Assembly (NCBI RefSeq): GCF_003334815.1
Contig: NZ_QOWO01000036.1
DNA: 37,286 nt
Reading direction: 5' to 3' (one strand)
Source of the DNA: Escherichia coli
Lineage (GTDB): Bacteria; Pseudomonadota; Gammaproteobacteria; Enterobacterales; Enterobacteriaceae
How positions within the stretch are numbered: the first letter of the stretch is position 1; each line of letters opens with the position of its first letter. Both the position numbers and the translations under genes were made by a program. Positions 1,380-2,486 of the stretch are shown in pieces. Below the pieces are notes generated by a model. That model worked only from the letters and a program-made list of their open reading frames with translations, was not told the DNA's origin and searched no databases.

Positions 1380-2198
1380 AGCAACCTCCGTGAAAATGAA
1401 TAATAATCCGCACATATTGCATGTACAACATGTCGGGCGGATGAGATAAGCGAGTCGACATCTGGCGTTACCGGGGAATATCAGAAAAATGTCATGGTTA
1501 TGTGATGATTTAGTCTGGGATTTTACTTCAGAGAAACGGGTGTCTGTTTAGTCAACAAAATAATCACAAACGCAACGGATGGGTTCTCGACGTTATTCAC
1601 GACAGGCTCGTACATTACAGCGAGTAATAAAAAACCTGATATGCAAAGTCAAACCAATATTCATAATGTCTTTTTATTCACAACAATAAATAATTCAATA
1701 ACAATCATTGAAATGAATGATGGTTTGTATAAGGAATATACGCTACCGCCCCACCCTGATAACATGATCTGCACATTGCCATCTTAACGTCGTTAAACAC
1801 TAGCTTAATAGTGGATATTTCAAATTAGGAATTTATTAAATTCACCTGATGAATATAATAAGCAAATAGCATAGAAAATAATGACAACTCCCCCGAGGGG
1901 ACCATTTCCAAAGCACTGCACCACCACCTGGTGCCGGATGATCTTGCTTCAGTGGTAAGAGTACCTGATGCATTGTTCCCAAAATGGTGTTTTCCCCTGC
2001 CCCTCCAATAATGTGTAGCTCTCACTTGATAATCTATTGATTAGGTTATATTAAGAATCAACATTTAAAATACATCCATTTTCTTGAATAAATCAACATG
2101 TTTATTAATCAATTGCTGTTTTAGCTCTGACTCATCAAGCTCTCCATATTTGTCCTACAGATAATTGCGAATAAATACAGAGAACGCCATTTATCCTT

Positions 2199-2411
2199 TT
2201 AGCATACCTGCCGGATATTTTTATTTGTATTAATATTAATTGCATCTCCAACTCCGAGCATATCCATCATTAAAAACATTTTGAGATTATAGAATGCCTG
2301 TGATAACAACTGAAACATCTGCACAATGTGAATAGTTAGTTTCTTTTCAGAGGAAATGAAATAGACACGCTGAATGAAAAGGAGAGTGATATAAATTAAA
2401 AAACATACCAT
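2199..2411 (-). CDS. yncH: Hypothetical small protein (70 aa) in AT-rich DNA
   Basis: ATG at 2411, TAA at 2199-2201, 70 codons. Symbol is a guess from position next to yncG and the matching length; I do not recognise the protein sequence. Confidence 0.35.
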   Translation of the reverse strand: MVCFLIYITLLFIQRVYFISSEKKLTIHIVQMFQLLSQAFYNLKMFLMMDMLGVGDAININTNKNIRQVC

Positions 2412-2486
2412 GAATTTAATTAATTACGCCCATCATTGTGGATAAAGTTACTGAATAATAAATAACATAATCTTCTGGTATCCCAC

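Follow-up and report, generated by a model that had tools for sequence, protein, structure and literature searches.

An AT-rich kilobase between vgrG and yncG in Escherichia coli is probably the upstream and junction DNA of an orphan vgrG–rhsE island

Is the conspicuously AT-rich kilobase between a vgrG gene and yncG in this E. coli genome an unrecognized island, or does it belong to the element beside it? We analyzed the tract within a stretch of 37,286 nt (the window), in which a first-pass annotation had marked positions 1416–2486 as an AT-rich island unlike its GC-balanced flanks. The contrast is real. GC content was 0.353 in 1416–2486 compared to 0.497 for the window, 0.584 for the flanking vgrG part, and 0.474 for yncG; only 0.76% of all 1071-bp segments of the window were equally low in GC, the lowest such value (0.338) fell inside the AT-rich region, and local values went down to 0.27–0.31, the extreme of the window. 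The long A/T runs described for this DNA are mixed runs, with 17 stretches of at least 8 W bases (15.9 per kb compared to 3.4 per kb in the window), rather than homopolymers, of which only two reached 6 nt or more. The right-hand end at 2486 was retained, but the left-hand end had to be corrected: because the annotated vgrG start codon is the ATG at 1379 on the minus strand, with GGAGG at 1389..1385, the non-coding tract starts at 1380 rather than 1416, and its true limits (1380–2486) are the vgrG start codon and the yncG stop codon. Both small ORFs that had been listed (70 aa at 2199..2411 and 66 aa at 1825..2025, both on the minus strand) are present, and none is longer. Composition within the tract is uneven, with GC of 0.46–0.50 in a patch at ~1856–2040. 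The tract is the known yncH region plus the leader of a vgrG–rhs island, not an unknown island; it is largely ordinary overall, and much about it is already known (Table 1).

Table 1. Features of the tract and its immediate flanks, in window coordinates.
Feature	Position	Strand	Remarks
vgrG, 5' part	72..1379	-	435 codons, then stop; NCBIfam TIGR03361, E=1.4e-138
vgrG leader module	1380..1866	-	Common to the paralogous vgrG-DcrB-rhs island beside cusS
Shine-Dalgarno GGAGG	1385..1389	-	5 nt upstream of the vgrG ATG at 1379
Published PhoB ChIP-seq motif 'rhsE'	1479..1496	+	Exact sequence match
Published sigma70 promoter pick, TTGACT-17-TATTAC	1624..1652	-	Exact match; Shimada 2014 (PMC3946193)
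Conserved promoter-like block, GTGCAGATCATGTTATCAGGGTGGGGCGGTAGCGTAT (1774..1738)	1735..1775	-	Promoter scan; alignment of island types
Palindrome GAATTTA-N-TAAATTC, 15 bp, AT-rich	1829..1843		In conserved upstream part of leader
GC-richer patch, 0.46-0.50	1856..2040		Single-copy, locus-specific; holds spurious 66-aa ORF and weak hairpin 1889-1901
AT-rich non-coding segment	2041..2198		Downstream of yncH
yncH ORF, 70 aa, WP_000226995, Pfam DUF5445	2199..2411	-	RefSeq annotation; profile match
yncG-yncH spacer, 29% GC	2412..2486		26-aa ORF 2500..2420 overlaps yncG end
yncG, glutathione S-transferase family	2487..3104	-	Stop codon is right-hand border of variable island

At least 80% of positions 1300–2600 was present in 3540 of 5426 E. 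coli genomes (about 65% of complete genomes), and the order yncG–yncH–~820 bp–vgrG–(DcrB)–rhs was seen in E. coli and in cryptic-clade Escherichia. In other island types, homology ended exactly at the yncG stop codon (2489) or in the yncG–ansP spacer (3221). The locus exists in at least four states with sharp junctions at these two positions, and the alternative islands are equally AT-rich upstream (GC 0.31–0.37). Mosaic breakpoints lay at ~1855 and ~2199, with a recombination breakpoint near 1855 in one relative (L010). Because the islands of other strains begin exactly at the yncG stop codon, the tract is flexible-genome DNA tied to the vgrG–rhs island, which partly supports the initial suggestion that such tracts beside Rhs/VgrG loci are usually acquired horizontally; its composition, together with presence/absence polymorphism, suggests that it was acquired. 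The RhsE element of Hill laboratory work and of an EHEC in-silico survey (PMC7216683) occupies the same locus, between ansP/yncG and ydcD/ydcC. The region resembles Rhs elements and orphan vgrG–rhs islands generally in its gene order (vgrG, then a chaperone of DcrB/EagR type and an rhs whose toxin tip varies) and in its H-repeat/ISAs1 elements; it differs in that the upstream leader, the sharing of this leader between the rhsE and cusS-side islands, and a conserved 37-bp block are undescribed in the literature searched.

The reading that we favor, at a probability of about three in four, is that 1380–2486 is non-coding DNA lying upstream and at the junction of an orphan T6SS island (vgrG–rhsE) in a recombination hotspot, and that it consists of two pieces. 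The hotspot that houses the island would be beside ansP, immediately downstream of yncG. The first piece would be a ~490-bp leader (1380 to ~1866) that travels with vgrG, is common to the cusS-side island, and carries a ribosome-binding site, one or more putative sigma70 promoters, and the 37-bp promoter-like block, whereas the second would be a ~620-bp AT-rich, locus-specific tract (~1866–2486) containing the annotated ORF yncH. The AT-rich DNA may nucleate an H-NS filament over the promoter or promoters, and this filament would keep vgrG–rhsE silent unless counter-silenced; in the source strain, the leader would now drive only a truncated vgrG'–'rhs fusion. The conspicuous AT-rich kilobase beside vgrG and Rhs would then be what one expects upstream of an exchangeable T6SS effector island, namely a region bound by H-NS.

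The leader is shared with a paralog. Its identity to the cusS-side vgrG island was ~79–81% (80.9% by blastn of 1300–1884 against that island in L004), and the homology faded between ~1866 and 1884. The Shine-Dalgarno sequence was invariant in 11 lineages and in paralogs. Two sites combine sigma70-like hexamers with a 16–18-bp spacing, TTATCA-16-TATATT (1762..1735, 9 of 12 consensus positions) and TTGACT-17-TATTAC (1652..1624); consensus promoter matches in the region numbered 3 compared to 7.1 in shuffled sequences, so such matches alone prove nothing. For the K-12 yncH>rhsE spacer, a 'constitutive' sigma70 promoter has been predicted and an RNA polymerase holoenzyme SELEX peak reported (Shimada 2014, PMC3946193), the latter located at a resolution of about 200–300 bp; a weak FlhDC SELEX peak is also listed there. 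Within the leader, conservation is lowest at the published promoter pick, and neither the cryptic-clade strains nor the cusS paralog keep its hexamer spacing. An inverted-repeat search found a similar copy of the 15-bp palindrome at 2411–2425, and the palindrome may be a chance product of AT-rich DNA. Rfam covariance models gave no match at E values up to 1 on either strand of 1000–3500, folding of the 5' leader, the GC-richer patch, and the hairpin was not unusually stable (z = −0.67, −0.68, and −0.08, respectively), and a terminator search returned one weak hairpin (1901..1889), no more than shuffled sequences give.

H-NS acts as a xenogeneic silencer of AT-rich acquired DNA (Navarre 2006, Lucchini 2006, Oshima 2006), with E. 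coli ChIP-seq in Kahramanoglou 2011. The tract matches such DNA in its low GC content and as ~1 kb of flexible sequence over promoters, and we noted no difference in kind, derepression at this locus being undocumented in the literature searched; a difference from H-NS-silenced cases is that the downstream vgrG is deleted in K-12. Silencing by nucleoid proteins had been suggested as usual for such tracts, and published K-12 data report H-NS binding here: the yncH>rhsE spacer is flagged with an H-NS genomic-SELEX site in vitro (Shimada 2014, PMC3946193), and a PhoB ChIP-seq site whose motif equals 1479–1496 (ChIP score 1, weak binding; Fitzgerald 2023, PMC10294691) is placed by Table 1 of that paper in a region that Kahramanoglou 2011 recorded as bound by H-NS in vivo. 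These data refer to a strain in which vgrG and the 5' end of rhsE are deleted up to window position 1447. The H-NS motif TCGATAAATT, with two or fewer mismatches, occurred three times in the tract (2.7 per kb compared to 1.2 per kb in the window), a weak enrichment. Neither hns-mutant expression data nor a mapped transcription start for the locus was found in the literature searched. Both yncH and ydcD are transposon-insertion cold spots, classed as 'essential only by TraDIS', a pattern that would fit protein-coated DNA and could also be a sign of function.

The lowest polymorphism in the tract fell in the 37-bp block at 1738–1774, ~356 nt upstream of vgrG. Across four island types, 29 of 37 block positions were invariant compared to 10 of 40 and 3 of 40 in its two flanks, and 5291 of the 5426 E. 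coli genomes (97.5%) carried the block; in one strain without the island, an ISAs1 element abuts the block. Its layout is that of a promoter, with a −35 hexamer TTATCA (1762..1757), a 16-bp GC-rich spacer, and a −10 hexamer TATATT (1740..1735). Among 100,044 species genomes, the single match outside E. coli was in another Escherichia, and we rejected the idea of a widespread enterobacterial element. A small ORF (MLSGWGGS...) was also rejected as the source of conservation, as its ATG or frame is broken in two island types. The nearly invariant block is one modest new item.

How much should be built on this conservation? One proposal, which we put forward tentatively and consider unlikely, is that the block is a genus-specific cis element of all orphan vgrG islands of E. 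coli and that, in parallel, yncH is a proto-gene. The block could then combine a core promoter with an operator placed within the GC-rich spacer, a candidate binding site for a regulator or counter-silencer, and yncH could have been born de novo in H-NS-silenced AT-rich DNA and propagated as a Pfam family. If the cis-element part were true, islands with unrelated cargo would be switched on together, and a real promoter or operator here would offer a handle on the control of effector islands away from the main T6SS cluster, a modest advance. The sci1 T6SS promoter of EAEC reportedly carries overlapping Fur boxes and Dam GATC sites (Brunet et al. 2011). Our tract resembles it in being AT-rich promoter DNA of a T6SS locus and in having a GATC (1766–1769) inside a conserved promoter-proximal element, but the 37-bp block fits the Fur-box consensus poorly by eye, and its GATC is missing from islands of the hyp-hyp-vgrG type as well as from one strain with an rhsE-type island.

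A further alternative is that the product of yncH is a small, functional protein of the vgrG–rhsE island with two helices and possibly a membrane location (an accessory, adaptor, immunity-like, or toxic peptide) and that the tract is mainly its gene and promoters. By profile HMM the ORF belongs to the YncH family (Pfam DUF5445, PF17520; E=9.7e-41), with residues 19–70 covering model positions 1–52 of 52 and thus the full length of the model, RefSeq names it yncH, and it is annotated in thousands of genomes and defines DUF5445; in rhsE-type islands its place is always between yncG and vgrG. GC by codon position (0.35/0.20/0.38) shows a coding-like dip at position 2, and the AlphaFold model places a hydrophobic N-terminal helix before a second long helix, at a confidence (pLDDT 64.5, pTM 0.39) too low to support a search by fold. 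The TraDIS cold spot, the recovery of yncH in an ASKA overexpression screen for oxidant resistance, and a crude 12-lineage dN/dS of ~0.5, which is below 1 and compatible with weak purifying selection, also speak for function. Against these points, relatives are restricted to Escherichia and Shigella in two very large protein libraries (157 matches among 5.8e9 proteins; 12 clusters among 1.84e9) and are at least 83% identical among the matches listed, and yncH itself has no match in NCBIfam, PADLOC, or PHROGs.

Polymorphism within yncH also weighs against a conserved protein. Segregating sites at codon positions 1, 2, and 3 were flat in yncH (8/7/10) compared to yncG (20/6/37) and vgrG (8/5/35). 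The 8 synonymous and 17 nonsynonymous variants were indistinguishable from the neutral fraction of 41/210 (p=0.13), yncH was more relaxed than vgrG (Fisher p=0.006), and pairwise dN/dS was 1.0–2.4; purifying selection on yncH as a protein gene was not detected in this sample of 9 haplotypes, which is small, so weak constraint is still possible. Start, stop, and frame were not conserved. The ORF occurs in forms of 70, 81, 93, 95, and 100 aa, the longest arising in some lineages by in-frame fusion to the 26-aa ORF at 2500..2420, and its start codon varies; it is intact in most genomes, and natural IS-disrupted and frameshifted alleles exist. In the one more divergent relative found (L015), the yncH ATG and stop are lost and indels of 5 and 4 nt break the frame, and the distal part of the non-coding DNA at 2041..2198 is as conserved as the ORF itself. 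Another relative with a 68%-identity 'YncH' (L014) was left out, its assembly being noisy with indels throughout the AT-rich part. Neither the cusS paralog nor the other types of vgrG island found at this locus contain the ORF. Moreover, 49% of composition-matched simulations of the tract contained a 70-codon ORF (34% with ATG starts only), so an ORF of this length is unsurprising here. Among the E. coli papers searched that mention yncH, none gave a ribosome-profiling or proteomic statement on it. Thus, yncH is near-neutral, under weak or no protein-level constraint, and most likely represents an ORF that is incidental or of very recent origin rather than a functional protein under conservation; a functional YncH is, in our judgment, distinctly unlikely. 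DUF5445 looks like an annotation-propagated ORF or proto-gene rather than a conserved protein family, and recognizing that this 'family' is probably not a conserved protein helps annotation hygiene and cautions toxin/immunity studies.

Rhs immunity genes sit downstream of the rhs toxin tip. The small ORFs of the tract lie upstream of vgrG, not downstream of a toxin domain, which is the wrong position for an Rhs immunity gene. Searches for toxin, immunity, and defence families in NCBIfam, PADLOC, and PHROGs gave nothing for any small ORF, with the sole exception of a chance-level PHROG match (E=0.058) for the 26-aa ORF. The 66-aa ORF had only six weak matches to partial E. coli 'hypothetical' proteins and was rejected as spurious. 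With yncH near-neutral and its relatives confined to Escherichia and Shigella, the suggestion that these ORFs might be toxin or immunity-like peptides was not upheld.

The segment from ~1866 to 2486 (~620 bp), which holds yncH, is locus-specific and occurs in single copy; searches of E. coli genomes and of plasmids returned no diverged copies. The GC-richer patch at 1856–2040 counts against the two-piece reading. It has been considered as part of a graveyard of decayed earlier cargo, in which the segment would be a relic, such as a dead P-loop protein gene or a decayed older vgrG leader, and not regulatory DNA. The patch itself, at 0.46–0.50 GC inside DNA of 0.30 GC, invites this idea, as do a conceptual peptide with a Walker-A-like string ('LHIIGGAG..GKT') across a frameshift and the resemblance of the yncH interior TGTGCAGAT...TGTTATCA to the leader block. 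However, the conceptual peptides had no family match even at E values up to 10, the 66-aa ORF has no real homologs, and the segment has no diverged copies, and the decayed P-loop gene was rejected. A decayed leader duplicate was rejected as well, since the local alignment of leader and tract scored 21 compared to 22.9 ± 2.7 in shuffled sequences (P=0.83), which is at chance. A repeat search found no direct repeats. We regard a graveyard origin as improbable.

It is very improbable that the tract represents an intergenic promoter region of the ordinary kind, inherited vertically and without any horizontal transfer or special silencing. E. coli intergenic DNA is generally AT-richer, other spacers in the window have GC of 0.35–0.39, and the tract occupies one fixed locus in about 65% of genomes; against this, it is ~1.1 kb long, reaches the compositional extreme of the window, is part-duplicated at a second vgrG locus, has published H-NS binding in K-12, and gives way entirely to other DNA in other lineages, where the junctions fall at the yncG stop codon. 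The junction analysis has already largely refuted vertical inheritance of the ordinary kind. The two-piece reading meets a remaining difficulty in tract divergence, which was 4–6.5% compared to 9–15% at third codon positions of the neighboring genes and points to some constraint or a younger coalescence.

That the 37-bp block is a sigma54 (−24/−12) promoter served by an enhancer-binding protein, as in the auxiliary hcp–vgrG clusters of Vibrio cholerae, is scarcely credible: the block has a GG...GC at the right spacing, and genomic SELEX with the RpoN holoenzyme gives a peak between yncH and ydcD that lies exactly on the 30% cutoff, but no GG-N10-GC in 1300–2600 scored 8 or more of 12 against TGGCACG-N4-TTGCW, and the SELEX coordinate is from another genome version, so that the peak is not placeable in the spacer with confidence.

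The vgrG'–rhs fusion downstream of the leader arises from a ~2.6-kb deletion, is out of frame, and has its junction at 101–108: window 101–1400 equals vgrG of a relative (L001), window 1–108 equals the rhs core of the same relative, and no more than 7 of 5426 genomes have contiguous sequence across the junction.

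In this Escherichia coli window, the DNA between the vgrG start codon and the yncG stop codon (1380–2486, the tract) lies at the 5′ end of an orphan vgrG–rhs (RhsE) island and, in each respect tested, behaves like AT-rich DNA that is exchanged horizontally and bound by H-NS. A GC scan confirmed the AT-rich region that the first-pass annotation had placed at 1416–2486; its left border moves to 1380. GC content was 35.3% in 1416–2486 versus 49.7% for the whole window; equally long windows with GC this low made up 0.76%, and the window-wide minimum fell within the region. The "long A/T runs" attributed to it exist as mixed A/T runs of at least 8 bases (15.9 per kb in the region versus 3.4 per kb) but not as homopolymers, just two of which reach 6 bases. 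GC content was uneven along the tract, rising to 46–50% at ~1856–2040; this GC-richer patch (1856–2040) had no homolog, its conceptual peptides matched no family, and it gave no stable fold. Shorter low-GC dips at 5933–6382, 8147–8724, 11857–12410, 26643–27258, 28704–29076, and 36771–37132 (300-bp minima 0.35–0.39) are probably ordinary intergenic spacers.

Features of the tract and its flanks, and states of the locus downstream of yncG
Feature	Position	Strand	Remark
vgrG start ATG	1379	−	preceded by GGAGG at 1389..1385
37-bp block	1738–1774		GTGCAGATCATGTTATCAGGGTGGGGCGGTAGCGTAT (vgrG strand); within leader
70-codon ORF (yncH)	2411..2199	−	identical to WP_000226995
26-aa ORF	2420–2500	−	MKLFEWDTRRLCYLLFSNFIHNDGRN; begins inside yncG 3′ end
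yncG	3104..2487	−
ansP	beyond yncG	+
State 1, rhsE-type island			as in window
State 2, PAAR-vgrG-M35 peptidase island (B2-like strains)	2489		homology with window begins exactly at yncG stop
State 3, hyp-hyp-vgrG-DcrB island	3221		yncG replaced too; homology with window begins here
State 4, island absent			ISAs1 element abuts remaining DNA

At least 80% of 1300–2600 was present in 3,540 of 5,426 complete E. coli genomes (megablast), and annotation in matching genomes was always yncG, yncH ("YncH family protein"), and VgrG. Given this gene annotation, the noted island consists of the yncH region, already known, and the 819-bp spacer between yncH and vgrG. The gene name, Pfam family, H-NS binding, and RNA polymerase binding were already known from databases and papers; our analysis makes three modest additions: a modular structure with sharp junctions, composed of a shared vgrG leader and a locus-specific part, the lack of protein-gene hallmarks in YncH/DUF5445, and a near-universal promoter-like block common to unrelated vgrG islands.

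The locus downstream of yncG is a hotspot that occurs in four or more states among strains, and regions upstream of the alternative islands were equally AT-rich (0.31–0.37 GC). The ~490 bp nearest vgrG (the leader; 1380 to ~1866/1884) also precede a paralogous vgrG-DcrB-rhs island adjoining cusS, at 79–81% identity, which makes this stretch part of the vgrG module. Consistent with this origin, the breakpoints of recombination mosaics fall near 1855 and 2199: one comparison strain (L010) was identical to the window over 1000–1855 and 2.5–3.8% different beyond, and another (L009) was identical over 1000–2198 and 4.7% different in yncH. The remaining ~620 bp (~1866–2486, including yncH) is single-copy and specific to the rhsE-type island. 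Together, these sequence comparisons support the proposed horizontal acquisition and the view of the tract as flexible, horizontally exchanged DNA. IS insertions also hit the tract in natural strains, with an IS3-family element splitting yncH and IS903B present in another genome (L027 1501–3043; NZ_CP080080.1). Tract divergence was 4–6.5%, compared to ~9% at third codon positions of yncG and ~15% at those of vgrG for the same strain pairs; any of three factors could account for the low value, namely slower mutation of AT-rich DNA, regulatory constraint, or exchange at a more recent date. In E24377A (L020 1788–2405), yncG is annotated as a pseudogene with an internal stop, and the nonsynonymous share of yncG variants was fairly high (28/66); the "core" flank may therefore be under relaxed constraint too.

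K-12 keeps the tract but carries a deletion that extends to window position 1447 and has cost it vgrG together with the 5′ portion of rhsE. The window carries a different lesion: 101–1400 corresponds to vgrG of L001, a strain with an intact island, and 1–108 to the L001 rhs core ~2.6 kb further on, producing a junction at 101–108 with an 8-bp overlap and a 435-codon vgrG with a stop at 72. Judged by this alignment, vgrG is shortened by more than the window edge alone. The junction was contiguous in at most 7 of 5,426 complete genomes.

Published K-12 data corroborate the suggested nucleoid-protein binding. Shimada et al., 2014 (PMC3946193) assign the yncH>rhsE spacer a σ70-holoenzyme peak by genomic SELEX and flag it for an H-NS SELEX site; the promoter they chose, TTGACT-17-TATTAC, maps to the vgrG strand at window 1652..1624. 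Fitzgerald et al., 2023 (PMC10294691) describe a weak PhoB ChIP-seq site, "rhsE", with the motif TATCAGAAAAATGTCATG (window 1479–1496), and mark it as inside a region that H-NS occupies according to Kahramanoglou et al., 2011. Published data also place a weak FlhDC SELEX peak within the spacer. We infer that H-NS silences the tract. The small genes flanking rhsE, yncH and ydcD, the latter syntenic to DNA beyond the left edge of the window, are transposon cold spots listed as "essential only by TraDIS" (Goodall et al., 2018), although Keio deletions of both exist. H-NS occupancy that blocks transposition would explain both cold spots and is compatible with the data, a reading absent from Goodall et al., 2018.

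Within the leader, the 37-bp block kept 29 of 37 positions unchanged in all four island types, compared to 10/40 and 3/40 in its flanks, had the lowest polymorphism of the tract, and was found in 5,291 of 5,426 genomes. It is the sole part of the tract surviving in the B2-type island (35/37) and lies ~250–360 nt upstream of the first gene in each island. A consensus scan placed a promoter-like site here (−35 TTATCA, 1762..1757; −10 TATATT, 1740..1735; GC-rich 16-bp spacer). The TTGACT-17-TATTAC pick falls where the leader is least conserved, and its spacing is altered in cryptic-clade strains and in the cusS-side paralog; SELEX resolution (200–300 bp) cannot separate it from the block promoter. 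A promoter or operator function of the block is a hypothesis, at somewhat worse than even odds, the alternative being a neutral relic or recombination junction. Alignment of the island types rejected an ORF, and a site scan rejected a σ54 promoter. The leader RNA fold was not unusually structured. In island-less AR_451, only half the block is left, flanked by ansP and the transposase of an ISAs1 element (H-repeat, ydcC; L018 4001–4037), which suggests that an H-repeat-associated deletion removed the entire island. The block was genus-restricted, with one match, in another Escherichia, among 100,044 species genomes. Its exact pattern had no match in the E. coli species-representative genome, though 97.5% of complete genomes carry the block; this representative may lack the block or hold a variant that the pattern misses, or the collection may have a gap there.

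Both small ORFs named by the first-pass annotation were present, and an ORF scan found none longer in the region, but neither is credible as the toxin or immunity peptide it had suggested. The 66-aa ORF lacks real relatives, having only six weak, partial E. coli matches. The 70-aa ORF matched Pfam DUF5445 (E=9.7e-41) and no toxin, immunity, defence, or phage family, and its structure model had low confidence. YncH had 157 relatives in a 5.8-billion-protein collection, with every source-named one from Escherichia or Shigella and all matches listed at least 83% identical, and only 12 related clusters, mostly fragments, among 1.84 billion cluster representatives searched without a word index. Its start varies (70, 81, 93, 95, and 100 aa); one large lineage has the frame beginning at an ATG that overlaps the end of yncG. 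The annotated 100-aa form (O157-like and other lineages) arose by in-frame fusion to the 26-aa ORF through a stop-codon change and a 1-nt insertion in a T-run; frameshifts also interrupt natural alleles. In a set of 12 lineages (9 haplotypes), codon positions 1/2/3 held 8/7/10 segregating sites (8 synonymous, 17 nonsynonymous), a near-neutral pattern indistinguishable from neutral expectation (p=0.13) and different from vgrG (8/5/35; p=0.006) and yncG (p=0.036), although weak constraint may have escaped notice among just 25 variants. Pairwise dN/dS was 1.0–2.4 for yncH, 0.08–0.18 for yncG, and 0.11 for vgrG. The sole clearly more divergent relative, a 525-bp metagenome contig, has lost the ATG and stop, carries frame-breaking 5-nt and 4-nt indels, and conserves non-coding DNA downstream of yncH at least as well. 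A 70-codon ORF appeared in 49% of composition-matched tract simulations. We therefore regard yncH as an ORF that is probably incidental or very young, and a functional YncH as unlikely.

A perfect AT-rich 7-1-7 palindrome, GAATTTA-N-TAAATTC, occurs at 1829–1843, where the upstream part of the leader is conserved. Directly upstream of the yncH ATG, at 2411–2425, is a similar copy (15 nt, 93% complementary); the pair could be a protein site or a chance occurrence in AT-rich DNA.
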